From: Patescibacteria group bacterium | GTDB lineage: Bacteria; Patescibacteriota; Saccharimonadia; Saccharimonadales; CAYUUR01 | Assembly: GCA_052034685.1 (NCBI GenBank) | Contig: JBPOIH010000011.1 | Location: forward strand, 17,910-81,909 | Length of the DNA stretch: 64,000 nt | Reading direction: 5' to 3' | Part shown: piece by piece, positions 923 to 49,432 of the stretch | Position numbering within the stretch: position 1 is the first letter of the stretch | How the letters are laid out: the number at the start of each line of letters is the position of its first letter | The notes under the pieces: model-generated | The model's database searches: none | What the model was told of the DNA's origin: nothing | Seen by the model: the letters and a program-made list of their open reading frames with translations, nothing else | Made by a program: the position numbers and the translations under genes

Positions 923-2068
923 CTACAGGCTGCTGGCAACACGCAGAAGCTGGTCGCTGTTGAGGTTGGATTTGCCGTCTATCTGGTACCATACGCCGCC
1001 GCTTACCCATGTGGCGCTAGAGTCGTTATACATATAAATAGTACGTCCAGCTTCTTGAAAGGTTTGGTACGGCTGGTTTAAGGTGGCTACAAAGTTATTT
1101 AGTAGTGATTCGCTGTTCCACTCAGAAGGGCGTTGTGAGATCTGGAAGTTGCGTCCGTCGGTATTTGAAGCAAAGTTAATGGTAACTACCCCAGGGGCTG
1201 CCTGGACTGGTCCGCTCATGGCAAAACCAGAGGGTTGATACTCTGGCAGTCGAGCACTAAAGCCTGCTTTGTTAGCAGCCATGCGGACGGCGATGTTTGG
1301 GATATTCTGATAGGCAAAAAAACCAACCAGTAGCAGTATTGACAAACTGGCAGCAGCAGTACTTACAAAACGGCCACTTACGCCAAGTTTTCGCGCGACT
1401 TTGTGTTTTGTTTTTGTCTTAGCTAGTTTGTGCTTGGTGTGGCTGGTTGATTTTTCCATGGCCGCAGCAATACTGGACTGCGTGCTGTTGGTTCGGTTGG
1501 TCGTCGCGGCTTGTTTACTGATAGTCATTGGCGGTGCCGGTTTGTGTGCCGGTGTGATGTGCGCGGGCATAGGTGTAACTGGCAGGTGCTTGGTGGTCTT
1601 GGTGACTGGCTTTGGCCCAAACCCAAACCGGCTAATTAATGGGCTCTGTGCGATCTTGTGTGCCTGCTGGGCACGTTTTTCTTGGATTTGAGCAGGAGTA
1701 GTTACTGCATGGTCGAGTGGGGTCGATACGCCAGAGAAGGTTTTGGTGTGTGTGGCGCTGGATGGTTTCTTTACGGCGCTACGCATAAGAGTCTTTGCGG
1801 CTTGCGGTTTACGGATGGCGTGACTTGGTTTTTGTACAGTTGCTTCTGTCTTGGCTTTCGGTGTGGGCGTAGGGTGAACTGACACGGCAGAGCTACGAAC
1901 GAACCCATCCATGTTTGTGCCTGCTGAGCGTTGTGGGGTTGCTTTTTTGCCGGTTGCAGCCTGATGAACGGTGACTTTAGGCTGTGGCGCTGTCTCTGAC
2001 AGCATCTTGCCACTGACTGCGTCGTATTTTTTGCCGTTCAGTTCAATTACCGATTTGGTATGTGCCAC
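923..2068 (-). CDS. hypothetical membrane-anchored protein
   Basis: 381-aa ORF with a Pro/Ala/Thr/Lys-rich N-terminal half, one hydrophobic helix (AAASLSILLLVGFFAY) and a globular C-terminal domain. No family recognised with confidence. Confidence 0.6.
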   Translation of the reverse strand: MAHTKSVIELNGKKYDAVSGKMLSETAPQPKVTVHQAATGKKATPQRSAGTNMDGFVRSSAVSVHPTPTPKAKTEATVQKPSHAIRKPQAAKTLMRSAVKKPSSATHTKTFSGVSTPLDHAVTTPAQIQEKRAQQAHKIAQSPLISRFGFGPKPVTKTTKHLPVTPMPAHITPAHKPAPPMTISKQAATTNRTNSTQSSIAAAMEKSTSHTKHKLAKTKTKHKVARKLGVSGRFVSTAAASLSILLLVGFFAYQNIPNIAVRMAANKAGFSARLPEYQPSGFAMSGPVQAAPGVVTINFASNTDGRNFQISQRPSEWNSESLLNNFVATLNQPYQTFQEAGRTIYMYNDSSATWVSGGVWYQIDGKSNLNSDQLLRVASSL

Positions 2069-2200
2069 TTTTTTGATTACCCTCTTTTGAATATGCTTGC
2101 GCTTGTATCTGAATAGTATGTATCTTAGCGCTCCTTGTCGTTGTCTGCAAGTAGAAACCTCCGTGACGCCTGCGCTCAGACGTGCTATAAATTGTATTGC

Positions 2201-3664
2201 ATGGATTTTCTAGACCCATCCAAAAAAAGAAAAAACGGCATCAAGTTATTTGTTGGCTATTTACTGGTTGGAATTGCAATCGGTCTGGCCGCGCTAATCT
2301 TAATTTTCTTGTCCTATGGCTATTCACTCGACCGCAAAACAGGTAGTGTTATCCAAAACGGCATTGTCTTTGTGGCCTCTAAACCTGCTGATGCAGAGAT
2401 ATTTATAAATGGCGAAAAGTACAAGGATAATACCGATGCACGCTTAGTTTTGCCGAGTGCGCAGTACAAACTAGAGATACGTAAGAATGGGTACCGAACT
2501 TGGCAGCGTGATTTTTATTTGAGCGGTGGAGAGATTCAGCGCTTTATCTATCCGTTCCTATTCCCGACTACGCTAAGCACGAGCGATGTTGATACATTTA
2601 CTGCGGCCCCGAGTATGGCATCGCAAAGCCCAGACCGTCGTTGGTTGATTGTCCAGTCCACGGCGCGTGATACAAGCTTTTCTCTTTATGACCTGAACCA
2701 AGATGCGCCGGTTGCTCAGTCGCTTGGTTTGCCTAAAAACCTCGCAACTGCAGGTACGACAGACGTGAAGGTCGTTGAATGGGCAAATGACAACAAGCAC
2801 ATCTTGCTTAAGCTGACTCATAAAAAAGGTGTAGAGTATATAATTCTCGATCGTGAGACACCTGCAAAATCACTTAATATCGCATCGACCACTAAGAAAG
2901 TGGCAGATACAGTTACTCTACGCGACAAAAAGTTTGATGCTTGGTACATGCACGTGGCTGGCAAACGTCAACTGTTTGTTGCCAGCGTTGACACGCCAAC
3001 ACCAAAGCTCCTCATAAAAGACGTTGTTGACTATAAGTCGTACGGCACAGACATCATTATGTACGCTACTGAGACAAAAGCATCTAAGGGCAAGGCGCGC
3101 ATTGTGATATGGGACGATGGGCGTGCCGATGTGCTGCGTGAGGTTGCCAAAAGTAAGAAGTATTTGCTTGATGTAACGCGCTTTGATAATCAATGGTATT
3201 TTGTCGCTGGCGCAGCCTCAGACGGTAAGATATATGTATACCGAGACCCCTTTGAAGCTATACGTGCCAAAACTCCCGCCCAGCTTGTACCCGCAACAAT
3301 CATGCGCCTAGATAACCCAACAAACGTGAGTTTTTCACAGAATACACGTTTTGTTGCAGCGCAAGCTGGCGGTACATTTGCGGTGTATGACGCAGAAGCG
3401 GAGCTTGCCTATCGATACGACACTTCGCTTGGTTTTGTAGACGGCCAGAAAGCAGTATGGATGGACGGGCATCGTTTAAGTGCAGTTGTCGATGGTAAAG
3501 TAGTCGTGTTCGATTACGACGGTATAAATATGCAGACTTTGACTGATGCCTCTACGTCCACGCTGCCATATTTCACGAACAATTACGAAACCCTATATAC
3601 AGTTGCGCCTAAGGCAAAGTCAACAGAAGCAAACCTCAAGCGCTCTAGTCTGCTCGTTAACTAG
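2201..3664 (+). CDS. PEGA-domain membrane protein
   Basis: ORF 2135-3664 trimmed to ATG 2201 (MDFLDPSKKRKNG). A TM helix (LFVGYLLVGIAIGLAALILIFL) is followed by a PEGA-like segment VFVASKPADAEIFINGEKY...YKLEIRKNGYRTWQRDF. Confidence 0.7.
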   Translation: MDFLDPSKKRKNGIKLFVGYLLVGIAIGLAALILIFLSYGYSLDRKTGSVIQNGIVFVASKPADAEIFINGEKYKDNTDARLVLPSAQYKLEIRKNGYRTWQRDFYLSGGEIQRFIYPFLFPTTLSTSDVDTFTAAPSMASQSPDRRWLIVQSTARDTSFSLYDLNQDAPVAQSLGLPKNLATAGTTDVKVVEWANDNKHILLKLTHKKGVEYIILDRETPAKSLNIASTTKKVADTVTLRDKKFDAWYMHVAGKRQLFVASVDTPTPKLLIKDVVDYKSYGTDIIMYATETKASKGKARIVIWDDGRADVLREVAKSKKYLLDVTRFDNQWYFVAGAASDGKIYVYRDPFEAIRAKTPAQLVPATIMRLDNPTNVSFSQNTRFVAAQAGGTFAVYDAEAELAYRYDTSLGFVDGQKAVWMDGHRLSAVVDGKVVVFDYDGINMQTLTDASTSTLPYFTNNYETLYTVAPKAKSTEANLKRSSLLVN

Positions 3665-3667
3665 CGC

Positions 3668-4870
3668 TTATTGCTCGTCTCCGCCACGTAGCCATGCCGT
3701 CATGCGGTTCCATAGGCTTGGTGCATTGCCTGGTACAATTTCAGCCGTTTCATCGCTTGCTTTAGCTGTACTTGCCTTGTTGCTTGTTGGACTTGGGCTA
3801 ATCTGCTCTGCTACAACGATAAGCCGGTTAATTGATGTGCCTGGCGGGTCACACGTAATGAGTGTTATTGTTGCTGGTTTGCTGGTTTTACCAAGCACAC
3901 TGACATCGCTCGGCTTAACGATCTTTTTCTCGTAGACTTTATATACGTATCTTTTGCTGTCTTTCGTTAGAATGATGGTATCGCCGGGTTGCAGGCGGTT
4001 TAGGAGTACAAATGCGAATTTATACTTGCCCTGGTTGAGGATGTTGTTGCTGGAGTGCCCTACGATGACGGCGTTCCCCTTCTCTCCTGGGTTAGAGGTT
4101 GTGGCGTAGTGGACAACACCGCGCTCCAACGAATTCTGGATCGCGGACTCCTTGATGCTAGGTTCATCGTAAACGACCGGTATCTCGACGTTGATTTTAG
4201 GAATGATAACTTTTGGTTCTGGGCCGACCGCCGTACTGCTTGGGTCAATGATAATTGGCGTATTGCTAACGGCTTTACTTGGGGTGATAAATGGCGCAAT
4301 GAAGCGTTCATTGAAGAAACCAAAGAGCATAACGAGTAGTACGGTTGCACCAATGCCAAGCCCAAAGAAAACTGACTGCATATGTTGCTTGCGGCTAAGC
4401 TTTTTGTTGCTCACCGCATTGCGTGCGATGCGTCTTTTTAGGTCGCCAACGCTGGTTGGCTTGGAGGACGAATCATGTTTTTTGTCAGCTGATGTTTTGT
4501 GACGTGGTGCGTGGTCTGGTTCAGCCGGCTGGGGCGTAGTAGTTGCTGGCTGTTTCGTGCGATCGTTTGTGTCGTAGAATTCTTGCCAGACTTGGTGTTT
4601 TTCTGTATCAGGCAGACTTTGGTAATACTCATGCCATGCTGTCTGGATCTCTGGCTGTGATTTACCAGAAGCGATAAGCTCGTGCATGTATCGTTGGTGT
4701 TTGCTGCGGTGGTCGGATGATTCTGCTAGTACGGCTTCTTTTTTGGCGCTAGGTTCTTCGCCGTATAAGGCGCTGATTTTTTGCCGGATAACTTGGGCAG
4801 CCAAGTCACCGTCGTGATTAGGTGCACGGTTAGTTGTTGGCTGTGTTGATGATGTGTCGTCTGGGTTCAT
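3668..4870 (-). CDS. sortase-family transpeptidase
   Basis: The C-terminal domain carries NAVIVGHSSN and TITLITCDPPGTS (TLxTC catalytic Cys motif). The N-terminus is a low-complexity region plus a TM helix (VFFGLGIGATVLLVMLFGFF). Confidence 0.85.
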   Translation of the reverse strand: MNPDDTSSTQPTTNRAPNHDGDLAAQVIRQKISALYGEEPSAKKEAVLAESSDHRSKHQRYMHELIASGKSQPEIQTAWHEYYQSLPDTEKHQVWQEFYDTNDRTKQPATTTPQPAEPDHAPRHKTSADKKHDSSSKPTSVGDLKRRIARNAVSNKKLSRKQHMQSVFFGLGIGATVLLVMLFGFFNERFIAPFITPSKAVSNTPIIIDPSSTAVGPEPKVIIPKINVEIPVVYDEPSIKESAIQNSLERGVVHYATTSNPGEKGNAVIVGHSSNNILNQGKYKFAFVLLNRLQPGDTIILTKDSKRYVYKVYEKKIVKPSDVSVLGKTSKPATITLITCDPPGTSINRLIVVAEQISPSPTSNKASTAKASDETAEIVPGNAPSLWNRMTAWLRGGDEQ

Positions 4871-4996
4871 AAAAATGCCGCGTCTCTTTGCGCGATACTC
4901 TAATTATAGTACAATAGCCCCTGATATTAACAGAGATGTTTTGCTTGTGCTTGATTATCTCTTTGTGTGTATCTGTACTTTTCTAGGTTCCCTATC

Positions 4997-5328
4997 GCGG
5001 GCGAGTGGTGGGTTTGTGCGAAGCACAACAAGAAAACAATTGTATACGCGCCGCGTAACTCGTCCGCAAAGACGCTAAACTAACCTTCACAATTCAGTTC
5101 ATAATCAAGGGCGAGTGGCGGGTCTGTGTGAAACACAGCCCAAGAAAAATTGTATACGCGCCGCGTAACTCGTCCGCAAAGACGCTAAACTAACCTTCAC
5201 AACTAGACTACATAACCGCGGGCGAGTGGCGGGTTTGTGTGCAACACAACAAGAAAGTAATTGTATACGCGCCGCGTAACTCGTCCGCAAAGACACTAAA
5301 CTATGCTTAACAACTAGACTATATTACC
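4997..5328 (+). repeat. three tandem ~111-bp units (4997-5106, 5107-5217, 5218-5328) directly upstream of tRNA-Leu, each beginning with a copy of the tRNA-Leu 5' end
   Basis: Each unit starts (G/A)(C/A)GGGCGAGTGG(C/T)GG, as the tRNA does. It then has a ~30-nt insert where the D-loop would be, followed by GTATACGCGC and CGCGTAACTCGTCCGC. The periods of 110/111/111 bp were hand-counted. Confidence 0.85.
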
Positions 5329-5330
5329 GC

Positions 5331-5415
5331 GGGCGAGTGGCGGAACTGGTATACGCGCACGACTCAAAATCGTGTTCCTTACGGATTGAGGGTTCGATTC
5401 CCTCCTCGCCCACCA
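5331..5415 (+). tRNA. tRNA-Leu (anticodon CAA)
   Basis: Acceptor GGGCGAG/CTCGCCC, D arm GCGGAACTGGTATACGC, and anticodon stem-loop CACGA-CTCAAAA-TCGTG. There is a long variable arm, T arm GAGGG-TTCGATT-CCCTC, discriminator A and an encoded CCA. Confidence 0.9.
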
Positions 5416-5578
5416 ATCTAAATGCCGGCCTGTGTGCCGGCTTTTAGATTGGTGAATGAAGCGAATCGAACCCGTACGGCGCAGCCGGGGTTCGTTCATG
5501 AGGAGCTCACGCAGGAGCTTGCTCTGAGTAAGCGACGAAATGCGAGGGCAAAGCCCGAGGTCCCTCCTCGCCCACCAA
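5416..5578 (+). repeat. tRNA-downstream element, Leu copy, ending in an 18-nt copy of the tRNA-Leu 3' end
   Basis: TCCCTCCTCGCCCACCAA occurs at 5399-5416 (tRNA 3' end) and again at 5561-5578. The interior GGTTCGTTCA...CGCAGGAGCTTGCTCTGAG resembles the Ser and Asn copies. Confidence 0.6.
5424..5445 (+). terminator. rho-independent terminator after tRNA-Leu
   Basis: GCCGGC-ctgtgt-GCCGGC followed by TTTT. Confidence 0.7.
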
Positions 5579-5582
5579 GAGG

Positions 5583-6593
5583 CTAGCCAAGAATTTCTAG
5601 GAGTTGATCGGTTCTGCGGTTGAGTCGTTCAGTGACCGCACTGTCACCAACGCTGCTTTCTCCTGCGAGCATTGCTTCGTGTTCGAATACGCACTCTTCA
5701 ATAACTTTCAGTGGACTTATCCACGCAGTACCTCTGTCGTACTGCAAGGCGAGGTCTCTAGTAGCGATGACTGTAGTGATATCTTCAGCGTATATGTCTT
5801 CTGTTCGGACGGCTTTGACCTGTATCTTATAGGCCGGATAGAACTGATAAGAAGCGTCATCTTGTGTCAGGCCTAGTATGTCATATGCTGTTCGTGGCTC
5901 TCCGTATTTGCTAAATTTCACATCTTCACTAAACACCGCCGGTCGCACAAACCAACTTCCGTCACCAACTGCTTGTAGACTGAACCTTTCAAGCACCAAT
6001 GATACGGCTTGCTCGGCAGCGAGTCCCCAAAAATCACTTGTTCGCTCTGCGTCTTCATTGTCTTTGTAGTACTGCTGAGAATTAGCGATCAATTGTGACA
6101 CATTAAGGTTACGATGGTGTGCAGCTCGCAATAGTTCGGGATCCATCCTTGTTTGGGTAGGAGTTAACTGTTCGAAGATATCCATATGGGCAAGCAATAC
6201 TGCTGCTCTTGCAGTTGAATCACACGAGAATATTTCGCCTTCTGAAACGAGGGCCTGTTGCATATTGTGTCGCGCCTGTCCAAGGAATGCACTGCGGGAT
6301 CCGTCGTCTGTTTGCATGGCTATATCAAGATACATTGCACCACTGCGCGCCAGAGCTTCACTCGTTCCTTGCCCCTCGAGTTCATAGACAACCTGGAGCC
6401 TTTCGCTATTATCGGCCGCATCAGCATATCTTTTGGCAAGCTCTTTTGGGGTGGCTGTATGTGCAGGCGCCTTTTCTCCGGCCGCTCCATGATACGTCTG
6501 GTAGTGACGCTTTCGAAGCCTATCTCTCTGTTTCTGCGTTTTCGTGTAGCCGTTAGAATTGTGCTTTGACATCCACCTATTATAAAACAACAA
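5583..6593 (-). CDS. hypothetical protein
   Basis: 336-aa ORF abutting the upstream gene stop; an alternative start is M8 at 6572. No family recognised. Confidence 0.6.
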   Translation of the reverse strand: MLFYNRWMSKHNSNGYTKTQKQRDRLRKRHYQTYHGAAGEKAPAHTATPKELAKRYADAADNSERLQVVYELEGQGTSEALARSGAMYLDIAMQTDDGSRSAFLGQARHNMQQALVSEGEIFSCDSTARAAVLLAHMDIFEQLTPTQTRMDPELLRAAHHRNLNVSQLIANSQQYYKDNEDAERTSDFWGLAAEQAVSLVLERFSLQAVGDGSWFVRPAVFSEDVKFSKYGEPRTAYDILGLTQDDASYQFYPAYKIQVKAVRTEDIYAEDITTVIATRDLALQYDRGTAWISPLKVIEECVFEHEAMLAGESSVGDSAVTERLNRRTDQLLEILG

Positions 6594-7379
6594 CTAGATA
6601 TTTGTCAAAGATGTGGTCAGCGCTTCAAAGAGTTTGGCGGGATGCTGGATCTGCCACACGCTCGCGTTTGCGGCGGTCTTGAGTCGCCAGATCTCGTCGC
6701 TATGTGGAGTGGTGCTCACCTGTCCATTTACGGCTACAAAAAGCTGGTCAACATGTTGCACGATTATGTTTGCCGATTTGCTGGCGGTAAATTCGTGAAG
6801 CCAGGCTGCTAACTGCACAAGACCCATCTGGTACTGGATAGGCTCAGGGTACTTGGCTTTCTGAGCCAGCTGCTGCAGTTGGCTGAGTGACGCTACTATA
6901 GTCGTGTCTGGTCTGTCAAACAGTGTATCTGGGTGCGAATAGAAGTAGTCGATAGCGTCGCGCGTTACAATCATTGGATGAGTAGTTTTTTGCAGGAAAC
7001 TTTCTAATAGAACAGCTGTTTCGCTGTTGCGCCCGAGCTCGCCAGTAATCAGGATCCCGTCTGCCCATTGTGCATGTTCAAGCAGCTCGGCTAGGGCGCG
7101 CTTGGCAAGGCTGCCGCTTGGTGTGCTCGGCAAGAAGTAGGCGTTTTCTAGGAAGGTGCCAACGGTTTTCTGTAGGCAGTCAGGCAGGGCGACACGGATA
7201 CTTCCAATACCGGCTTTGGTTGCCATCTGATATGCCTCGGCAGGTGCTGCAAAACCATGTGCGTTGCCGCCAACAATCAGCAATTTACCTGCTGCATGCT
7301 TCGTCTCCGGCTTGCTCCAGATTAGGTCAGGAAACAGCGGCTTGTCGGTTGATTGTTTATGCCAGTAGGTATTTTCCAT
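6594..7379 (-). CDS. YjeF C-terminal-like / NAD(P)H-hydrate dehydratase-family carbohydrate kinase fold protein
   Basis: Contains GKLLIVGGNAHGFAAPAEAYQMATKAGIGSIRVALPD and ILITGELGRNSETA, typical of the family. The start was moved to ATG 7379, which is preceded by GGAGG. Confidence 0.55.
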   Translation of the reverse strand: MENTYWHKQSTDKPLFPDLIWSKPETKHAAGKLLIVGGNAHGFAAPAEAYQMATKAGIGSIRVALPDCLQKTVGTFLENAYFLPSTPSGSLAKRALAELLEHAQWADGILITGELGRNSETAVLLESFLQKTTHPMIVTRDAIDYFYSHPDTLFDRPDTTIVASLSQLQQLAQKAKYPEPIQYQMGLVQLAAWLHEFTASKSANIIVQHVDQLFVAVNGQVSTTPHSDEIWRLKTAANASVWQIQHPAKLFEALTTSLTNI

Positions 7380-8067
7380 CTTGCGCCTCCAGTTCATATA
7401 TGACGTTTTTACGTTCCACGACTATCTTCCAGCCCTGCTCTTTTGCTAAGCTGTAGAGTTTCTGGTCAGGGTTAAAAGCAATGGGGTTTTCAACCATCTC
7501 TAGCATTGGTGCATCACTCTGACTGTCGCCAACTGCATAGCTGCCATCAAAGCTGAGTCTATTGTCGGTGATTATCTGCTGCAATCGGGCTTTTTTGTCA
7601 GTGCTGGCAATGGCCGCTTCACCCGTAAACTTACCTTCATGACGTTCATATGTGGAGCCTTGCCAGACGTCGAAGCCATATTCTTTGGCAATTTGCTCGA
7701 CCAGTTCTTGATGTGAACCAGAAATAGCAATCAGCACATAGTCTTGTCGCTTAAGTTCGGTAATGAGGTCTCGTGTGTAGGTGTATACCTGTGCTTTGTA
7801 TTCCTGAATAATCTCCCCGACGGCGGTATCAAACTGTTCCGTACTCAGCAGTGGCAAAGCTTGGCTGTAAACGCCAATAAGTGCCCGCTCGTAGTCGTGA
7901 AAGGCGTCAGGGTGTTCGCGGCGCTTCCAGTGCATTCGTGCCTGGTCAAGCTGCCCTTTAGCATCCTCGCCAAGCAAGCCCTTCTTGGCCAGCCGATCAA
8001 CCACTGCGTGGTACAACTGCCACCGGATCAACGTCCCATCAATATCAAACACCGCAAACCTCTGCAT
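7357..8067 (-). CDS. HAD-superfamily subfamily IB hydrolase (SerB-like)
   Basis: HAD motifs FDIDGTLI, ISGSHQE, K...VGDSQSDAPML. Confidence 0.75.
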   Translation of the reverse strand: MQRFAVFDIDGTLIRWQLYHAVVDRLAKKGLLGEDAKGQLDQARMHWKRREHPDAFHDYERALIGVYSQALPLLSTEQFDTAVGEIIQEYKAQVYTYTRDLITELKRQDYVLIAISGSHQELVEQIAKEYGFDVWQGSTYERHEGKFTGEAAIASTDKKARLQQIITDNRLSFDGSYAVGDSQSDAPMLEMVENPIAFNPDQKLYSLAKEQGWKIVVERKNVIYELEAQDGKYLLA

Positions 8068-8082
8068 ATAGCTAGTATACGC

Positions 8083-8580
8083 CTATTGCTTGATCGGTAG
8101 GTAGTGGTCAAGCAAGTTTTGCTCGGCTGGATTCATTTCAAGGAAGCGTTTATCATTGTCGAACTGTATCGCAAATTCCTGAATCTCTGGCACATCTGGT
8201 GATAGCGCAGCGGGCACCCATAGACGATCAGCAGGCCACATTTGGTCATAAGGTAGGTTATTTGTTGCAAACCACGCGGGCTTCATCTCATCTTTTTCAA
8301 CTGCGACACCGCTAAAGTCGTCTGTCACGTAGGCCATGCTGACGACACCAAGTTCCCCGCCAAAAGAAAACAGGAGACGTCCAACGAGCCGAAGACTATT
8401 TACTTCTATACCTGATTCCTCGCGTGTTTCACGAATCGCTGCCTCCTGAAATGCTTCGTCTTTGTCGAGCTTTCCGCCAAAACCGTTCCACCAGCCCTCT
8501 CCGAAGCCGCGCTTCTTCATGCCGAGCAATACTTGGTCGTCCCGTAATGGAAAAACAATGGTTGTTCGAAGCGGTTCCAT
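8083..8580 (-). CDS. NUDIX hydrolase
   Basis: Nudix box GGKLDKDEAFQEAAIRETREESGI. The start overlaps the xth stop by 1 nt. Confidence 0.85.
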   Translation of the reverse strand: MEPLRTTIVFPLRDDQVLLGMKKRGFGEGWWNGFGGKLDKDEAFQEAAIRETREESGIEVNSLRLVGRLLFSFGGELGVVSMAYVTDDFSGVAVEKDEMKPAWFATNNLPYDQMWPADRLWVPAALSPDVPEIQEFAIQFDNDKRFLEMNPAEQNLLDHYLPIKQ

Positions 8581-9377
8581 TAGGAGATCTCGATGCTAAC
8601 TGGGCAATGATCAGAGCCCATGACGTCGGCATGGATTTTGGCATCAGTTATTTTATCAGCAATTGATTTGCTGGCCAGCCAGTAGTCAATGCGCCAGCCT
8701 ACATTACGAGCCCGCGCATTGGCCCAGTGGGTCCACCAGCTGTAGGCTCCTGTCTTGTCTGGGTAGAATTTGCGGAAAGTGTCTACAAAACCTGCTTTCA
8801 AAAAGTTACTAAAGCCTTCTCGTTCTTCGTCGGTAAAGCCATGCTTACCAACATTTGGTTTAGGATTGGCTAGGTCGATTTCTTGGTGCGCTACATTGAG
8901 GTCACCACAAAACAGCACGGGCTTGGTTTCTTCAAGCCGCTTCATGTAGGCCAGAAACGCCGGGTCCCAGTGTTTATGCCGGAGTTCCACACGTGATAAG
9001 TCACCTTTGCTGTTTGGCGTATACACTGTTGCGACAATAAAGTCCTCAAACTCGGCTGCCATCACTCTGCCCTCTTGGTTTGGGTCGCCATATGTATCGC
9101 CAGTTAGTTTGAACTGTTTGATGATGTCTTCTGGAAAGCCATTGGTGATACTGAGTGGTTTGACCTTAGAATAAATCGCCGTGCCACTGTAGCCTTTTTT
9201 GACGGCAGAGTACCAGTATTCTCGGTAGTCTGGCAGATCAACTTCGGCCTGACCAGGCTGGGCCTTAGTCTCTTGTAAGCAGAGAATGTCTGGGTCGTGT
9301 TCTTTGATAAACTGCTGAAAAGCGCCTTTGTTGAGCACGGCGCGGATGCCATTCACATTCCAACTATACAACTTCAT
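8580..9377 (-). CDS. xth: exodeoxyribonuclease III
   Basis: Reads MKLYSWNVNGIRA...ILCLQETK...GDLNVAH...IDYWL...SDHCPV. The ORF-track start at 9464 was trimmed to M30 (9377). Confidence 0.9.
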   Translation of the reverse strand: MKLYSWNVNGIRAVLNKGAFQQFIKEHDPDILCLQETKAQPGQAEVDLPDYREYWYSAVKKGYSGTAIYSKVKPLSITNGFPEDIIKQFKLTGDTYGDPNQEGRVMAAEFEDFIVATVYTPNSKGDLSRVELRHKHWDPAFLAYMKRLEETKPVLFCGDLNVAHQEIDLANPKPNVGKHGFTDEEREGFSNFLKAGFVDTFRKFYPDKTGAYSWWTHWANARARNVGWRIDYWLASKSIADKITDAKIHADVMGSDHCPVSIEIS

Positions 9378-9451
9378 ATCTGCAGTATACCAGAATGCCA
9401 TCCTGTGGTGATTGACTGTCGGGGCGGTTCTGATACACTTGTCTCTTAGAA

Positions 9452-10171
9452 ATGAAACTTGCAAACAAAAGAGTCCTGTTGAAAATATCCGGCGAACAAC
9501 TTGCCGGTAGTCATGGATTCGGTATCGACCCTGAAGTTGCCCGCTACTTTGCGAATGAGCTCAAATCACTGCGCGAAGCTGACATACAGGTCATTGTAAT
9601 TGTTGGCGGCGGTAACATGGTGCGCGGTAAAACACTTGCTGGCGAGAGCCAAATTAAGCGCGTTACGGCTGATCAAATGGGAATGCTATCCGGGCTCATG
9701 AATGCTATGGCCTTAACTGATATCTTTGAAGCAGAAGGCTTGCCGACGCGCTGTCTTAGTAATGTCTATGTTGAGCAGTTAGCAGAAAGCTTTTCATTCC
9801 GTCTGGCAGAAAAGCATCTACAGAAAGGTCGCGTTCTGCTCGTTGCTGGTGGCACCGGCCGGCCGTATTCAACGCACGACACAGCCGCCGTACTCACAGG
9901 TCTTGAGCTGGATTGTGATCTCGTCATGAAAGCAACTAAGTACGACGGAGTTTATGACGACGACCCAGCGGTGAACCCGCAGGCCAGCAAGCAGTCCCAG
10001 CTTAGTTTTCAGTCGGCAATAGAGAATCAGAAGATCAATGTCATGGACAAAGCGGCCATGGGTCTGGCAATGGAACACAAGATGACCGTAGTAGTGTTTG
10101 ACGCTATGAAACCCGGCAATACCCTACTGTCTGCCCAAGGCACGACTACCGGCACAACAATACAGTCGTAA
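9452..10171 (+). CDS. pyrH: UMP kinase
   Basis: Reads KRVLLKISGEQLAG...VIVIVGGGNMVRG...LLVAGGTGRPYSTHDTAA. Confidence 0.9.
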   Translation: MKLANKRVLLKISGEQLAGSHGFGIDPEVARYFANELKSLREADIQVIVIVGGGNMVRGKTLAGESQIKRVTADQMGMLSGLMNAMALTDIFEAEGLPTRCLSNVYVEQLAESFSFRLAEKHLQKGRVLLVAGGTGRPYSTHDTAAVLTGLELDCDLVMKATKYDGVYDDDPAVNPQASKQSQLSFQSAIENQKINVMDKAAMGLAMEHKMTVVVFDAMKPGNTLLSAQGTTTGTTIQS

Positions 10172-10175
10172 TTAT

Positions 10176-10415
10176 CTACTTAAAGCGACTCAAAAGTACC
10201 GCGGCGTCTTTGTTGCTGAGCTTACCGTGCGAAGTTTCTTCTGCCGGCGTATGGCGCAGGTTGCGCAGAATCTGCTGGTAGGTTTTATGTATGGTTTCTG
10301 TTGTCTGGTGTAAAGGACGAATCGATGCTTTTGGTGCTTTAGGCGCAGCTTTGGCAGGATAATTGATAAACCCTTGTATAGCATCACTCCGGTTAACGGT
10401 AGATGACTTACTCAT
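10176..10415 (-). CDS. hypothetical small protein
   Basis: 79-aa ORF whose start overlaps the stop of the upstream gene by 1 nt, suggesting translational coupling. Confidence 0.45.
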   Translation of the reverse strand: MSKSSTVNRSDAIQGFINYPAKAAPKAPKASIRPLHQTTETIHKTYQQILRNLRHTPAEETSHGKLSNKDAAVLLSRFK

Positions 10416-11191
10416 TACACAACCTCAACACATGGCCGAAACCGTTCGGTTTGCATGTAGCCTTTAGGGTCGTCCTGAGCAAAGCGGTAGGCGCCACTCA
10501 TGAATGAGACAGACACAGGTTCGCTGACGTCGTGATTGAGCAACCATGTCCAGCTGTGATGGTCACGTGGTGTAGTGTGACGCAATGCGTACACGGCGTA
10601 TTCATGAATGCCAAAACCACGCGCGTCGTGCCCTGCAATGATATAACTTTGACTGCCAAGGATTTCCTCGGCGCTGCCAAAGTCTAGGCCATCGATGCCG
10701 TCGTAGATGACGAGCAGTCGCCATTTTTTGGATGTAGTTGGTCCGATGATTGTTTCGTTCTGATCGCTGTAGCGGACGTGAGGTTGCTGCAAACGCAGGG
10801 CGTTCAATTGTCCTTGGTCTAGCATTTGTGTCGGTGGTATGAGTTGCATGGTAAACAAGTCAGGAGACACTTGTAGTTCGTCTGCGAGATCGTTAATGAC
10901 TACTTGTGCTTTGGCAATTCTACGTTGTAGTGTTTTATAAGTCGGAATAGCAATACCACGTGCTTGCCATTCGCTTGCGAGCTCGTTATACCAGTTGGCG
11001 GTTTCTGTCTCAGGAGTTTGAACTGATGTCTTGGCGCGATCTTTTCGGATAGCTGCAGCATAACGGTCTTTGTATTGTGTTGAGCTTGCAAAAAGCTGGC
11101 TGCGCTTTTGGTACAAACTACTGAGGTTGCTTTGTAAGTCAGTGATCTCTTGATCAATTTGGTTGAGTTTTTCGAGATTAGTAACTAACAT
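10415..11191 (-). CDS. hypothetical protein
   Basis: 258-aa ORF with a coiled-coil-like N-terminus. No family recognised. Confidence 0.6.
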   Translation of the reverse strand: MLVTNLEKLNQIDQEITDLQSNLSSLYQKRSQLFASSTQYKDRYAAAIRKDRAKTSVQTPETETANWYNELASEWQARGIAIPTYKTLQRRIAKAQVVINDLADELQVSPDLFTMQLIPPTQMLDQGQLNALRLQQPHVRYSDQNETIIGPTTSKKWRLLVIYDGIDGLDFGSAEEILGSQSYIIAGHDARGFGIHEYAVYALRHTTPRDHHSWTWLLNHDVSEPVSVSFMSGAYRFAQDDPKGYMQTERFRPCVEVV

Positions 11192-13097: not shown

Positions 13098-13241
13098 TGG
13101 CGGAGAGAGAGGGGTAACGCACAGCCGCGTCCGTTCTCGGAGCGAGCTCCTGCGAGCGGACTTGCTGACCGAACCTGGCTCGAATCCCTTTTCTTCAGAG
13201 AGAAGAAAAACGGCCACACTTTTGTGTGACCATTTCTCTCC
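13098..13241 (-). repeat. tRNA-downstream element, Ser copy, ending in a 16-nt copy of the tRNA-Ser 3' end
   Basis: TGGCGGAGAGAGAGGG occurs at 13242-13257 (tRNA 3' end, plus-strand reading) and again at 13098-13113. The interior contains GACCGAACC and GGAGCGAGCTCCTGCGAG, as do the other copies. Confidence 0.6.
13203..13231 (-). terminator. rho-independent terminator after tRNA-Ser
   Basis: The minus strand reads GGTCACAC-AAAA-GTGTGGCC followed by GTTTTTCTTCT. Confidence 0.65.
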
Positions 13242-23797: not shown

Positions 23798-26026
23798 TTA
23801 CTGCGGAACCACATAGTCGTTATTCACGTAAAGCCGTTTACTTGAAAAATTCCCAAGTTGCTGCTGGCTCGTCCATAGGTAGTCTGCTCCACTGCCCGGA
23901 CTATACCAAAACACATCTGACCGACCATCACCATTGAAGTCACCACTAATTGGTCGATGATTACCTCCAACGTTCATGGGTTTTGAACTAAACGTTCCCA
24001 GACTACTCGTCCCATACCACAGATAGTCCTTGGCATCTCCCGGACTGTACCAAAACACATCTGACCGACCATCACCATTGAAGTCACCACTTATTGGTCG
24101 ATGATTACCTCCAACGTTCATGGGCTTTGAGCTAAACGTTCCCAGACTACTCGTCCCATACCACAGATAGTCCTTGGCATCTCCCGGACTATACCAAAAC
24201 ACATCTGACCGACCATCACCATTGAAGTCACCACTAATTGGTCGATGATTGCCCCCAACGTTCATGGGTTGATTGATGAACGCTCCTGGGGCTGCAGTCC
24301 CGTACCATACATAATCTTTTGATATACCTGGCCGATACCAGAATATATCCGATCTGCCATCATTATTGTAGTCCCCCGGTATCTGTTGGTATGACCCGTC
24401 AATATTCAGAGACGTGGCATCAAAACGAGAAGCTACATTATTCCCTGTCCATATATAATCAGTGCCTGCTCCCGGACGGTGCCAGAATATATCCCCTAGT
24501 CCATCGCCATTAAAGTCGGTATTACGAATTGATTGTTTACATGACTGAACGAGCGGATTACTCGGGGTACTGTTTAAGCTGTTTGCGGCGTTAACACGTC
24601 CATAACCGTATCTTTCACTGTTTTTTTGACAGCCCATGGCGGCAACCCGTGAACTGTAATTAGTGAGCTTTTGTCGAATCTGTGCAGGTGTTGCTGATGG
24701 CTCCTCGGCTAGTAAGAGTGCGGCGACGCCGGCAACAATTGGGGTGGCGATTGATGTCCCATCGGCAGAATTCGTATAGCTGGTAGTTTGGTTTCCGGCA
24801 GACCAAGTGGGTGTACGGATTGCGCCGCTTCCCGGGGCAGTAATATCAAGCTCTGGTCCCCAGCTACTAAAATCGGCTCGTTCATCATTGGCAGTAGTAG
24901 CACCTACTGAGATTGCATTGTTATAACGACCGGGGTATAACATCTGACCTTGGTAGTCGCAGCCTTGTGATGCATAGCTTGAACTACCGCAGTTGCCAGC
25001 AGCAGCAATTACCGTGACGCCAGCTGCAACTGCATCATTGATGGCGGTTTCCATGGCGGGGTCGCTTTGTGTTGAGCCAAGACTGAGGCTAATTATCTGC
25101 GCTCCCTGCTCCACTGCGTAGTCGATCGCCACTACGATATCGCTCGTAAAACCTGAGCCGTTATCACCGAGCGCTTGCAAGGGCAATATGCGCGTTTGCC
25201 AACTAGCACTGGCCACACCCTTGGCGTTGTTACCGGTGGCGCCGACGAGCCCACTGGTGTTCGTACCATGGCTTACAAAAAAGTGCCCGGGGTTGGTGGT
25301 CCCGGCCAGCGGATTATTGTCTCCCTGGGCGGAATTAGCGAAATCCCAGCCGCGCCAGTCGTCAATTAGTCCATTACTGTCATCATCGAGTCCGTTGGTC
25401 TCTTTGCCGCTACCGGATTCCGCTGCGTTAATATACCAGCGGTTTTCCATGTCCTCGTGGTTTAGTCCAAATCCAGTGTCTATGACGGCTACAATAGTGT
25501 TGGTGCCAGTAGTGGTGTCCCAGGCAGTGTCGAGACCTATTACTTCTGGGTAGTAGTTACTAGAGTGAAGCGGGTCGTTTGGTGTCAGCGTAGCCTGGTA
25601 TACAACGTTTGGTTGAGCAATAGCTCCGTCTGTTGCATTAAGTTCTTCTACGGGCTTAGCAACCACATAGCTCAAACGCGAGGCAATCTGTTGCAAATCC
25701 TCAGCCGATAGTTGGTTAGAGACCAAAAACGCTTGTTTTGCTTTAGTATTTTTGAAGCTAACTATTGATGATGCTTGCTTGCTTGTTTGCGCAGCTTCTG
25801 CCACTTTCGTTTCATCTGATTTTTTATCCGCGATTACACGGTCAATAATACGTTCAGTTAGTGATGGAGGGTTGCTAGGGGCAGTAGCTTGCGTGTAATC
25901 AGGGTTGATAGGATCAGCGATTGGTTGAGGAGTGGCTTTGGAGCTTTGCTGCCACAGGACGTACCCCATCACTGCGGCGCAAATGCCCAACGCGATAACG
26001 CCACCCGTTTTTACCCTCCGATGCAT
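23798..26026 (-). CDS. subtilisin-like S8 serine peptidase with C-terminal FG-GAP/VCBS-like repeats
   Basis: Catalytic-triad contexts VAVIDTGF, HGTNTSG and GTSIATP. The C-terminal repeats read DFNGDGRSDVFWYSPG, and there is an N-terminal TM anchor. Confidence 0.85.
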   Translation of the reverse strand: MHRRVKTGGVIALGICAAVMGYVLWQQSSKATPQPIADPINPDYTQATAPSNPPSLTERIIDRVIADKKSDETKVAEAAQTSKQASSIVSFKNTKAKQAFLVSNQLSAEDLQQIASRLSYVVAKPVEELNATDGAIAQPNVVYQATLTPNDPLHSSNYYPEVIGLDTAWDTTTGTNTIVAVIDTGFGLNHEDMENRWYINAAESGSGKETNGLDDDSNGLIDDWRGWDFANSAQGDNNPLAGTTNPGHFFVSHGTNTSGLVGATGNNAKGVASASWQTRILPLQALGDNGSGFTSDIVVAIDYAVEQGAQIISLSLGSTQSDPAMETAINDAVAAGVTVIAAAGNCGSSSYASQGCDYQGQMLYPGRYNNAISVGATTANDERADFSSWGPELDITAPGSGAIRTPTWSAGNQTTSYTNSADGTSIATPIVAGVAALLLAEEPSATPAQIRQKLTNYSSRVAAMGCQKNSERYGYGRVNAANSLNSTPSNPLVQSCKQSIRNTDFNGDGLGDIFWHRPGAGTDYIWTGNNVASRFDATSLNIDGSYQQIPGDYNNDGRSDIFWYRPGISKDYVWYGTAAPGAFINQPMNVGGNHRPISGDFNGDGRSDVFWYSPGDAKDYLWYGTSSLGTFSSKPMNVGGNHRPISGDFNGDGRSDVFWYSPGDAKDYLWYGTSSLGTFSSKPMNVGGNHRPISGDFNGDGRSDVFWYSPGSGADYLWTSQQQLGNFSSKRLYVNNDYVVPQ
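23895..24270 (-). repeat. near-identical 144-bp intragenic tandem repeats (2 full copies plus a partial one) inside the S8 peptidase gene
   Basis: CCCGGACT(A/G)TACCAAAACACATCTGACCGACCATCACCATTGAAGTCACCAC recurs at 23895, 24039 and 24183, a period of 144 bp. Confidence 0.85.
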
Positions 26027-26121: not shown

Positions 26122-26943
26122 TTAGTTCTCGTTTTCTACTTCCTGCTCGTCTTCTGACTCTTCATCCTTGTCATCGTCCTGGTCGTCATCGACATCGTCA
26201 TTGTCATCGTCTTTGTCTACGCTGCCACTCACTCCGTCATTGTCATCATCGTTGTCTTCGGCGTCTTTCCGGCCGTCATTGTCATCATCGTTGTCTTTGA
26301 CGTTTGGTTGTCCGTCATCATCGTTGTCATCGTCGTTTCTGCGTTCTGCACGTTTCTTTTCTTCTTTGCCGTCTTTTGTCTTTACTTCCATGATAGAGCC
26401 ATTATTTGCGTCAACTTCAACGAGCCCTTCATCAACAAACTTTACCCGGTAAACGAGCGTTCCGTCTTCTGTTTCGACTTCTATCTCTTTTATTGCAACC
26501 CCTGGATGTTCTTTTTTAGCAATTTCAACCGCGCTCGAAAGTGACACTTTGGCAGTCAGGTTGCCCGGCAGACTATCGTCGTCCTTGCTGTCGTCATCAG
26601 AGATTGCAATTTGCTCACCACTTGTTGCATTGTAGGTAATTTGCTTGCCATTTGATAGGTGGACTACATATACGAGCACACCGTCCTCAGTCTTCAACTC
26701 GATCCCTTTAGTAGTAAGTGTCGAGTCGTCTTTCTTTGCAATCTCTTCGATTTTATCAAGCGCTAGAACGCTGCCTAAGTCGTTCGGGATTGTGGTTGCA
26801 AGAGGTGTGCTTGACTCTGTCGTTACAGAGCTCTTGGTGTCTTGCTTACCAACGACGTAGTAGCCCACGCCACCAAGTGCAGCCAGTACTAAGACTACGA
26901 TGACGCTCTCTACTGCGGTAAAACCTTTTGCATTCAATTTCAT
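26122..26943 (-). CDS. prepilin-type N-terminal domain protein with two PepSY-like domains and a poly-acidic tail
   Basis: The N-terminus MKLNAKGFTAVESVIVVLVLA carries the G/FTxxE class III signal. There are two PepSY-like units (...IAKKEHPGVAIKEIEVETEDGTLVYRVKF...VDANNGSIMEV). The C-terminal ~90 aa is D/E/N rich. Confidence 0.7.
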   Translation of the reverse strand: MKLNAKGFTAVESVIVVLVLAALGGVGYYVVGKQDTKSSVTTESSTPLATTIPNDLGSVLALDKIEEIAKKDDSTLTTKGIELKTEDGVLVYVVHLSNGKQITYNATSGEQIAISDDDSKDDDSLPGNLTAKVSLSSAVEIAKKEHPGVAIKEIEVETEDGTLVYRVKFVDEGLVEVDANNGSIMEVKTKDGKEEKKRAERRNDDDNDDDGQPNVKDNDDDNDGRKDAEDNDDDNDGVSGSVDKDDDNDDVDDDQDDDKDEESEDEQEVENEN

Positions 26944-40588: not shown

Positions 40589-40767
40589 TGGCCCCCAGGG
40601 GTCGGGTAATGCACATCTTGCACTCGTTCTCGGAGTAAACTCCTGCGGGCGAGCTGGATGACCGAACCAACAACTTGCCTCAGCTGAAGCTGCTGCGTTG
40701 CCGATTCAAATCAAAGCCCAAGAGAATGAAAAAAGACCCTCACATGAGGATCTTTTTTCATTGGCTC
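40589..40767 (-). repeat. tRNA-downstream element, copy B; its last 108 bp form the left direct repeat of the RiPP islet
   Basis: 40660-40767 matches 49173-49280 at 107 of 108 positions (hand-aligned). This includes the terminator hairpin and the first 6 nt of the tRNA-Asn 3' end. Confidence 0.8.
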
Positions 40768-40881
40768 TCCCTAGTGGACGTACTTCGCAACTATTCAATT
40801 ACAGATTTTAGTTGTCCTACGGGCATTATGATTAACTATCTGTATTCAAAAGCTTCTTGCCCATAGATAAATCTGGCTGCT

Positions 40882-49090: not shown

Positions 49091-49274
49091 TGGCTCCCGG
49101 GGTCGGATAATGCACGGCTGCAGCCATGCTCCCCGGCTTCCTTGCAGGAGGCCGGGTGTGCGTGGCTTGGTCGACCGAACCAACAACTTGCTTCAGCTGA
49201 AGCTGCTGCGTTGCCGATTCAAATCAAAGCCCAAGAGAATGAAAAAAGACCCTCACATGAGGATCTTTTTTCAT
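49091..49274 (-). repeat. tRNA-downstream element, Asn copy A (contains the tRNA-Asn terminator and the right direct repeat)
   Basis: It begins with TGGCTCCCGGGGTCGGA, a 17-nt copy of the tRNA-Asn 3' end at 49275-49291. The terminator is AGATCCTCA/TGAGGGTCT flanked by A6/T6. Confidence 0.8.
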
Positions 49275-49349
49275 TGGCTCCCGGGGTCGGATTCGAACCG
49301 ACAACCTCGAAGTTAACAGCTTCTTGCTCCACCATTGAGCTACCCGGGA
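49275..49349 (-). tRNA. tRNA-Asn (anticodon GUU)
   Basis: The minus strand reads TCCCGGGTAGCTCAATGGTGGAGCAAGAAGCTGTTAACTTCGAGGTTGTCGGTTCGAATCCGACCCCGGGAGCCA. It is 75 nt, the anticodon loop is CTGTTAA, and CCA is encoded. Confidence 0.9.
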
Positions 49350-49373
49350 ATATTTAGTTGTATTTGTAATGTA

Positions 49374-49432
49374 CTTCGGGCAGCTATGCTGGAGCATTTG
49401 CTCCACTACTATTATCTGAAGCTACCCGGGAA
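49374..49432 (-). repeat. tRNA-Asn 5'-end mimic with an expanded D-loop and a self-closing strand
   Basis: The minus strand reads TTCCCGGGTAGCT-tcagataatagtag-TGGAGCA-aa-TGCTCCA-gcat-AGCTGCCCGAAG. The first 13 nt equal the tRNA 5' end and the last 12 nt are largely complementary to it. Confidence 0.5.

Follow-up and report, generated by a model that had tools for sequence, protein, structure and literature searches.

The 64,000-nt stretch of DNA analyzed here (referred to below as the window) is a segment of a Saccharibacteria-type chromosome, from the Candidate Phyla Radiation (CPR) of bacteria, and our attention is on the 460-nt intergenic region from which a class D sortase gene (3668 to 4870, minus strand) and the gene for tRNA-Leu(CAA) (5331 to 5415, plus strand) diverge. 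Directly 5′ of the tRNA gene lie three tandem units (4997 to 5330), each of which repeats parts of the tRNA 5′ half, and it is the nature of these units that concerns us. The pairing of sortase and tRNA-Leu(CAA) genes is kept in about 60 Saccharibacteria loci (individual loci are given below as L numbers). Upstream of the tRNA, the motif TATAGTACAAT (Table 1) is found with up to two mismatches in 59 such loci; it lies 28 to 61 nt from the tRNA in 37 of these 59, versus 426 nt in the window, and the units therefore sit inside a 5′ leader that is normally short. The sole sigma-70-like site returned by a promoter scan (4930 to 4903, minus strand) overlaps this motif. Within the units the scan found neither a sigma-70-like promoter nor a terminator, a match at 5167 to 5155 (minus strand) being only the GCGC palindrome. 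As judged from the sequence, TATAGTACAAT appears to be the promoter of the tRNA-Leu leader, and the array would be cotranscribed with the tRNA. The longer form of the motif, (A/T)TATAGTACAAT, is highly conserved between the sortase and tRNA-Leu genes (window 4900 to 4930; syntenic loci such as L037, L002, and L094), and in some species it is embedded in an operator-like palindrome, AACAGATG...CATCTGTT.

Tandem Repeats Finder reported a period-111 array at 4996 to 5343 (3.1 copies, 86% matches, score 502), and a repeat search of the window recovered three 111-nt copies that are 81 to 86% identical, which bears out the three tandem 111-bp units of the original prediction, a reading made earlier from this stretch. 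The units start 110 and 111 nt apart. Each runs, in order, through tRNA nt 1 to 13, a 30-nt hairpin-bearing insert, tRNA nt 19 to 28, a 16-nt tail (CGCGTA plus ACTCGTCCGC), and a spacer of 41 to 42 nt. The tRNA 5′ 13-mer, GGGCGAGTGGCGG, recurs at 4999 (with one mismatch), 5109, and 5220, in addition to the true tRNA at 5331; GTATACGCGC, corresponding to tRNA nt 19 to 28, recurs at 5042, 5152, and 5263 (5349 in the tRNA itself); and the tail CGCGTAACTCGTCCGC is present at 5052, 5162, and 5273. That each unit starts like the tRNA and resumes the tRNA sequence after an insert of about 30 nt had been seen correctly, except that what the insert replaces between the two tRNA-derived blocks is a D-loop core of 5 nt (AACTG) rather than 4. 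In units 1 and 3, the two bases before nt 1 also match the tRNA, and the last ~17 nt of the spacer resemble the sequence that precedes every other GGGCGAG. Two blocks are common to unit and tRNA, one of some 30 nt made up of the spacer end and GGGCGAGTGGCGG and the other being GTATACGCGC, which gives ample homology for unequal crossing-over.

Relatives were reached through sortase homologues and through pattern scans. Homologous units were found in at least seven other lineages; as had been predicted, the array is not a random repeat. Outside the window's own sortase cluster, a single unit occurs in L085 and L122 (sortase 44% identical to that of the window at the amino acid level), in L126 to L129 (70%; the 5′ GGGC is lost), in L130 (69%; the helix between unit start and tail is replaced by TTTCTGA/TCAGAAA), and in L141 to L143 (70%; the 5′ strand is of another type, described below), while L139 and L140 (69%) have two units, of which the promoter-proximal one is decayed. 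For the window's own 90% sortase cluster, the identities are at the nucleotide level and compare sortase gene plus leader with those of the window. L144 (99.0% over 1329 nt) has two units in a changed order, one with a unit-2-like hairpin coming first and a unit-1-like one following; L132 (GCA_964448075.1; 87%) has one unit with a degraded hairpin; L137 and L138 (84%) have at least one, the first of them without GGGCGAG and one hairpin arm; and L136 (GCA_018001115.1; 85%) has none. A 5′ strand or hairpin arm is missing from the promoter-proximal units of L139 (L139a) and L137 and from the single unit of L126. The original prediction had named free variation in unit number, as in a neutral minisatellite, among the observations that would speak against selected structures, and this is what we see, with 0 (L136), 1 (L132), 2 (L144), and 3 (window) units in a single sortase cluster. 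Copy number and order vary and short-read contigs end within the units, the behavior of an unstable minisatellite. The Logan short-read contigs in question break inside the Leu units in L001/L135 (ending at window position 5067) and L137/L138; another, L145, ends near window position 49156, inside a cassette next to tRNA-Asn that is described below.

A pattern scan of species genomes gave at least 120 matches, true tRNA-Leu genes among them. The metagenome scan with the unit-specific pattern gave one real match, L122, whose unit sequence is the same as that of L085; two other matches, in coding sequence, were false positives, and a further one was an unrelated 5′ fragment of tRNA-Leu adjoining tRNA-Leu(GAG) (L125). 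A pattern scan of viral contigs gave 0 matches, and an nhmmer profile of the unit found copies only at the tRNA-Leu locus, in the 64-kb window and ~1 Mb of loci. With no copies at unrelated loci, a dispersed repeat, such as a miniature inverted-repeat transposable element or a repetitive extragenic palindrome, was rejected.

The origin of the units is best traced through the tRNA itself. Two alternative tRNA-Leu(CAA) genes occur at this locus in Saccharibacteria, one beginning GCCGCGG (type A) and one beginning GGGCGAG (type B, the type of the window). In L131 the type-A gene, 88 nt long and unlike type B in its acceptor stem, is intact and as far from the promoter as is normal at this locus. 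The single unit of L141 fills the exact slot of this gene and matches it in leader, flank (TTTTGCTTGT), and first 13 nt (GCCGCGGTGGCGG); after these come the D-loop insert, the rest of the unit, the spacer, and a type-B tRNA. Type-A nt 1 to 25 plus a hairpin lie upstream of the type-B tRNA in L084, L118, L073, L020, and L072. Because of the shared L131/L141 slot, the TTTTGCTTGTGC relic in the window (Table 1), and these other type-A fragments, it appears that redundant tRNA-Leu copies once stood at the locus and that one of them has been decaying. The rest of the unit can be read in similar terms, the tail (CTCGTCC-G-C) as a putative mutated acceptor 3′ strand (CTCGCCC-A-C) and CGCGTA as a possible short templated inverted copy of the preceding TACGCG. 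The first 7 nt may have changed from type A to type B through recombination with the tRNA downstream. A match of the L131 trailer CTACATAAC to the window spacer was dropped, since it falls in the end of the next L131 gene.

On balance we favor, with moderate confidence, the view that the units are tRNA-pseudogene relics in the leader of tRNA-Leu(CAA), amplified and lost by unequal homologous recombination, cotranscribed with the tRNA and removed by RNase P. A relic would retain the 5′ acceptor strand and D-arm, the latter with a 30-nt insertion in its loop, and would have lost the anticodon, variable, and T arms; it would end in a short tail resembling the acceptor 3′ strand, followed by a spacer of ~41 nt preceding the next gene copy. 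Unequal homologous crossing-over, or replication slippage, between the shared blocks could then add, remove, and shuffle units, giving 0 to 3 copies. Transcription would start in the TATAGTACAAT promoter region and run through the array as part of a long 5′ leader, which RNase P would cut off at tRNA position +1 and which would then be degraded. The fold of the units would be inherited from the self-complementarity of the parent tRNA (acceptor stem and D-arm), with a short templated snap-back insertion adjoining the D-arm 3′ strand, and closure may be tolerated or mildly favored because closure would leave the relic's spare 5′ strand and its tail unavailable for mispairing with the real tRNA. 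As in tandem tRNA-pseudogene arrays of the plastid trnF type, the copies are partial and head to tail, lack an anticodon and T arm, vary in number, and include degenerate members. No dedicated function of the units is required. The original prediction suggested that the units may be selected structures rather than decay products; the comparative data point the other way, to the decay of a tRNA gene copy.

The folding data are relevant here, since the units had been described as self-closing mimics of the tRNA. For the 71-nt modules of units 1, 2, and 3, the folding energies are −26.0, −28.5, and −31.8 kcal/mol, and the z scores against shuffles are −2.25, −2.78, and −3.92. A closing helix between GCGGGCGAGT and ACTCGTCCGC, of 10 bp with one G-U pair, is predicted for units 1 and 3; unit 2 starts with AAGGGCGAGT and closes by 8 bp only, so that the 10-nt complementarity claimed for all units applies to two of them. 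Likewise, the two internal hairpins said to be present in each module both appear in the minimum free energy (MFE) structure of unit 2 only, other internal pairings being preferred in units 1 and 3. The hairpin of the insert is indeed paired in all three units, as TTGTGC-GAA-GCACAA (5014 to 5028), CTGTGT-GAA-ACACAG (5124 to 5138), and TTGTGT-GCA-ACACAA (5235 to 5249), the last of these being a better pairing than the TTGTG-tgcaa-CACAA first proposed.

We then counted pairs in an alignment of 12 distinct units, with 500 column shuffles as the reference. In the closing helix, 73% of cells are paired and 0 of 10 (8+2) pairs are changed on both sides; the helix is broken or replaced in L126, L130, L141, and L139a. 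The GCGC palindrome is 87% paired, with no double changes, and an alternative small helix in the tail (CGTC/GACG), 85% paired with no covariation, was set aside. For the structure as a whole, the observed paired fraction was reached by 50 of the 500 shuffles, and so does not exceed them, and the covariation score, which is marginal, by 14, figures that come from 12 units that are few for the purpose and related to one another. Orthologous units from L141, L085, and L126 gave z scores of −0.39, +0.11, and +0.35. Because these are no more stable than shuffles, the self-closing property is a trait of the window's young copies and not a conserved one. The helix at the core of the self-closing idea is thus uncompensated, and double changes of the kind that had suggested covariation are seen in the insert hairpin alone, to which we return below.

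A comparable relic lies upstream of tRNA-Asn(GTT) in the same window and is of the same design as the Leu units (Table 1). Its D-arm 3′ strand is followed by 6 nt that repeat this strand in inverted form, the tail is complementary to tRNA nt 4 to 12, and the relic folds closed at −25.3 kcal/mol (z = −4.27). We considered a shared element in the Leu and Asn relics and rejected it, the similarity of their non-tRNA parts being nonsignificant (156 of 2,000 shuffles reach the score). A wider census of tRNA flanks covered 225 ARAGORN tRNAs in the window and all loci and looked for 13-mers with at most one mismatch within 450 nt. Copies of the tRNA 5′ end were found upstream of 11 of the 225 and downstream of 1; copies of the 3′ end were found downstream of 19 and upstream of 0. 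Independent 5′ fragments closed by a complement were found in Uhrbacteria (L112), in WWE3 (L114), and on a metagenome contig (L125).

Several observations weigh against decay as the whole account. The Leu and Asn relics both have the 6-nt inverted copy directly after the D-arm 3′ strand, which random decay does not predict. The 6-bp insert hairpin is paired in 89% of cells, and double changes occur at 3 of its 6 pairs (the loop-closing pair, C-G/U-A; a G-C/A-U pair; and the outermost pair). Even decayed copies re-form a hairpin by other pairings, TTTGGCT/AGCCAAA in L139a and TGGT/ACCA in L137. Between lineages whose sortases are 44 to 70% identical, the unit is far more conserved than the adjacent leader, and it contains a conserved 35-nt block, CGTCCG..GAC.CTAAACTA.CCTT.ACAACT. 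The spread of the units is also patchy, L085 having one and its closer relatives L088, L037, L012, L002, and L094 none. The insert hairpin is the single element that may be under constraint, or it may be kept palindromic by templated mutation.

Of the alternatives, the one that survives best, unlikely as we consider it, is that the units are functional cis-acting leader RNA modules that tune or time the maturation of tRNA-Leu(CAA), or a processing or stability element. Four strands would be involved, namely, the unit 5′ strand (1), the unit tail (2), the tRNA 5′ strand (3), and the tRNA 3′ strand (4), with 1:2 plus 3:4 as the productive state and 2:3 plus 1:4 as a trapped one. The compensatory changes in the hairpin, the persistence of the unit in at least seven other lineages, and the recurrence of the same architecture at tRNA-Asn with its low z score all fit this idea, and in the MFE structure of 4915 to 5415 (full leader plus tRNA) the tRNA 3′ and 5′ strands do pair with unit 2, the former with its 5′ strand and the latter with its tail. 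However, an MFE structure of a 500-nt RNA disregards cotranscriptional folding and tRNA tertiary structure. Moreover, L136 has no unit at all and the 99%-identical L144 differs in number and order, the closing helix is uncompensated and has disappeared in L126 and L141, several orthologous units do not exceed shuffles in stability, and most Saccharibacteria have a 28- to 61-nt leader without such a module. If it is true that leader modules affect tRNA folding, they would represent a simple, fast-evolving control of a single tRNA. More doubtful is a broader version, in which tRNA genes of this Saccharibacteria lineage, and of the CPR more widely, would be systematically flanked by partial self-copies that are not inert, either as a four-strand pairing system that determines the share of pre-tRNA folding productively and whose 0 to 3 copies are a fast-evolving dial for the supply of tRNA-Leu(CAA) or tRNA-Asn, or as the footprints of 5′-side mini-elements that bring their own leader.

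Such mini-elements are the substance of another alternative, which we hold to be improbable: that the units are scars of site-specific integration on the 5′ side, in which mini-elements carrying a leader and the 5′ part of a tRNA insert at the boundary of D-arm and anticodon, each insertion pushing the previous 5′ fragment upstream in a mirror image of the classical att (attachment site) duplications of tRNA 3′ ends. The strict polarity of the census speaks for it, with only 1 and 0 copies on the wrong side, as do breakpoints that recur independently at tRNA nt ~25 to 35 (L084, L118, L036, L082, L125, and L114) and the presence in the window of classical 3′-end att-type repeats at all three tRNAs and of an 8.3-kb low-GC island between tRNA-Asn 3′-end repeats. 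Each unit also contains the exact 13- to 15-nt copy of the tRNA 5′ end that an att duplication would leave. However, the copies are separated by ~98 nt rather than by element DNA, and Pfam found no integrase among the ten open reading frames (ORFs) around the locus (923 to 11191). Outside their tRNA-derived parts, the Leu and Asn units are not significantly alike (the shuffles given above), the unit was not found elsewhere in the window and ~1 Mb of loci, and the D-loop insert would interrupt an att core. Homologous unequal crossing-over accounts for the change in number and the reordering, and, to our knowledge, integrative elements supply the 3′ part of a tRNA and not the 5′ part (Williams 2002, as cited in PMC9897764).

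That the units are independent small-RNA genes, or tRNA-like decoys for RNase P or Z, the CCA-adding enzyme, or a synthetase, can be set aside as very improbable, since the 71-nt module size, the 10-bp or 8-bp closure (z = −2.3 to −3.9), and a tail T in the G-U pair (G3:U70-like, in a pseudo-acceptor helix) that is invariant in 12 of 12 units are countered by the lack in the units of a promoter-like site, a terminator, a T-arm, an anticodon arm, and CCA, by the lack of any ARAGORN or Rfam tRNA or tmRNA (transfer-messenger RNA) match even at an E value of ≤10, by a helix that is unconserved in relatives, and by a relative, L136, that does without the units.

Searches for known families agree in outcome. 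The Rfam search of the units that had been proposed earlier was run on both strands of 4400 to 6000 at an E value of ≤10 and matched no family, the true tRNA being the sole match, and ARAGORN called none of the units a tRNA, either in the window or in those relatives that were checked. RtT RNA (RF00391) was rejected, with no Rfam match in the region and with the units lying 5′ of the tRNA. ARAGORN did call a tmRNA at 5109 to 5415, with an atypical tag, APRNSSAKTLNYA. There is a certain likeness, in that a far-upstream 5′ acceptor strand is able to pair with a 3′ T-arm and acceptor around a short ORF. However, Rfam gave no tmRNA match in 4400 to 6000 at an E value of ≤10 or in the whole window at gathering thresholds, and we regard the call as an artifact, the 3′ half of tRNA-Leu being paired with the unit-2 5′ strand, as it also is in the MFE structure of 4915 to 5415. 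Two ORFs, at 4854 to 5078 (plus strand) and 5105 to 5296 (minus strand), are low-complexity read-through of the repeats; coding was rejected because the 110/111-nt spacing and the indels between relatives break the frames.

On the 3′ side, every tRNA of the window (Leu, Ser, and Asn) is followed by a cassette of 140 to 180 nt that comprises a terminator, an inverted T-arm-like segment, a shared core, and an exact 13- to 18-nt copy of its own tRNA 3′ end, starting in the T-loop. These 3′-end copies begin about 130 to 170 nt past the tRNA end, and in several CPR phyla the tRNAs for Leu, Lys, Cys, and Met are followed by such copies at 127 to 172 nt. The core CGCAGGAGCTYGCTCYGAG occurs at 5510, 13136, and 40629 (0.01 expected by chance); it is present in the Leu and Ser cassettes and, in diverged form, in the Asn cassette. 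A second Asn-type cassette, whose first ~110 nt are nearly identical to those of the cassette beside tRNA-Asn, is preceded by an Asn 3′-end remnant and ends in a diverged 3′-end copy. The 8.3-kb segment between the two Asn cassettes (40.8 to 49.1 kb) has a GC content of 0.42 to 0.46, versus ~0.49; it encodes YcaO plus a nitroreductase, an APH-like kinase, a transketolase-like protein, and a flavin-monooxygenase-like protein, and no integrase, and it looks like an island integrated at tRNA-Asn. The downstream cassettes have the look of T-loop att duplications of the classical kind and of integrative islands reduced to mini-remnants (compare PMC9897764), and they show the tRNA genes of the window to be recombination hot spots. 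We found no evidence that the 5′ units arose in the way of the downstream cassettes.

Cassettes in other loci (L024, L007, L118, L010, and L105) in many cases have a hairpin with a CC-AGT-GG cap and a covarying stem (e.g., ACTGCCAGTGGCAGT, ATATGCCAGTGGCATAT, and GTCAGTCCAGTGGACTGAC), along with motifs such as CGAGCGAAGCGAG, which suggests that the hairpin is a conserved structured element. A different element of ~90 nt lies upstream of tRNA-Leu(CAG) in L018 (2236 to 2342, plus strand; a metagenome-assembled genome [MAG] of Sungiibacteriota) and L046 (about 3826 to 3936, minus strand; a second MAG). It starts with the first 10 nt of the tRNA and has a T-run at its end; of its two hairpins, one has an AAAA loop, and both differ in sequence between the two genomes yet are paired in each. 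In L046 the 38-nt leader is duplicated along with the element. Elsewhere in the window, a 144-bp tandem repeat (2.6 copies, 96% identical) and a set of 39-bp repeats lie in adjacent ORFs, which probably encode repeat-containing surface proteins.

Table 1. Positions of the tRNA-derived units, cassettes, and other repeats in the window
Feature	Position	Strand	Parts and remarks
Promoter-like motif TATAGTACAAT	4905–4915	+	Common to the divergent sortase gene; putative start region of the tRNA-Leu leader transcript
TTTTGCTTGTGC	4939–4950	+	Relic of type-A 5′ flank plus first 2 nt; identical in the intact tRNA of L131 and the type-A-headed unit of L141
Unit 1	4997–5108	+	tRNA nt −2 to 13, 4997–5011 (GGTGG variant); hairpin, 5014–5028; GTATACGCGC, 5042–5051; tail CGCGTA+ACTCGTCCGC, 5052–5067; spacer, 5068–5108
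Unit 2	5109–5219	+	tRNA nt 1–13, 5109–5121; hairpin, 5124–5138; GTATACGCGC, 5152–5161; tail, 5162–5177; spacer, 5178–5219
Unit 3	5220–5330	+	tRNA nt 1–13, 5220–5232; hairpin, 5235–5249; GTATACGCGC, 5263–5272; tail, 5273–5288; spacer, 5289–5330 (immediate leader of tRNA-Leu[CAA])
Functional tRNA-Leu(CAA), type B	5331–5415	+	Acceptor GGGCGAG/CTCGCCC; ARAGORN; Rfam tRNA, 59.8 bits (5331–5412)
Leu cassette	5416–5578	+	Terminator hairpin, 5411–5454; inverted diverged T-arm copy, 5460–5473; core CGCAGGAGCTTGCTCTGAG, 5510–5528
Leu cassette, 3′-end copy	5561–5578	+	Exact, 18 nt
Ser cassette	13101–13241	−	
144-bp tandem repeat	23895–24268		In the 742-aa ORF 23798–26026 (−)
39-bp repeats	26196–26318		Inside the next ORF
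Second Asn-type cassette	40590–40775	−	
Asn cassette	49094–49274	−	
tRNA-Asn(GTT)	49275–49349	−	
Relic upstream of tRNA-Asn	49350–49431	−	82 nt; tRNA nt 1–12, enlarged D-loop, GTGGAGCAA, TGCTCC, AGCTGCCCGA, ~36-nt spacer

The tRNA-Leu(CAA) locus of Saccharibacteria records a history of gene-copy turnover, with two acceptor types and leftover relics. In the reduced genomes of the CPR, polar partial self-copies of tRNAs are common, 5′ copies lying upstream and 3′ copies about 150 nt downstream. There are also practical consequences: short-read assemblies break up at the arrays, inside which three Logan contigs end; ARAGORN is led to a false tmRNA call; and the arrays may be mistaken for a new RNA family. 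From a more useful viewpoint, the difference in copy number between 99%-identical strains makes the array a potential strain marker.

Repeats that copy part of a tRNA and flank its gene have precedents in other systems. The 178-bp repeats distal to E. coli tyrT, which give rise to RtT RNA, are in tandem, flank a tRNA gene, each carry a short exact copy of the tRNA 3′ end, and are cotranscribed with the tRNA and released in its processing. Position and copied end are both 3′ for these repeats and both 5′ for our units; it is the downstream cassettes of the window (5416 to 5578 and the others) that come nearer to the tyrT repeats. The partial tRNA genes that integrative elements leave at attL and attR (PMC9897764, with Williams 2002 and Reiter 1989 as cited there) resemble the units in being exact short copies of a tRNA end near the intact gene, with strict polarity. 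However, in the classical cases the 3′ part is duplicated, and kilobases of element DNA plus an integrase lie between the copies (PMC9897764), whereas the units repeat the 5′ part every 111 bp and come with neither element nor integrase.

The tandem arrays of trnF(GAA) pseudogenes in the plastids of Brassicaceae, Solanaceae, and Asteraceae (PMC3786074, with Koch et al. 2005/2007 as cited there) are closer. Like the units, they consist of tandem partial tRNA copies directly upstream of the functional gene, lie between or after sigma-70-type promoter motifs, have units of tens of base pairs, and vary in copy number between and within lineages (1 to 6 and more for trnF), and they are regarded as nonfunctional products of illegitimate or unequal recombination (PMC3786074). 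The two differ in host, a CPR bacterium versus a plastid, and in which parts of the tRNA survive. The trnF copies keep mainly their anticodon, T, and D domains, with acceptor strands usually absent (PMC3786074), whereas the units keep the 5′ acceptor strand, the D-arm, and an acceptor-3′-like tail, have lost the anticodon and T arms, and have a closed fold. By this comparison, the trnF pseudogene array of plastids is the closest known analogue of the units, which we regard as its bacterial counterpart.

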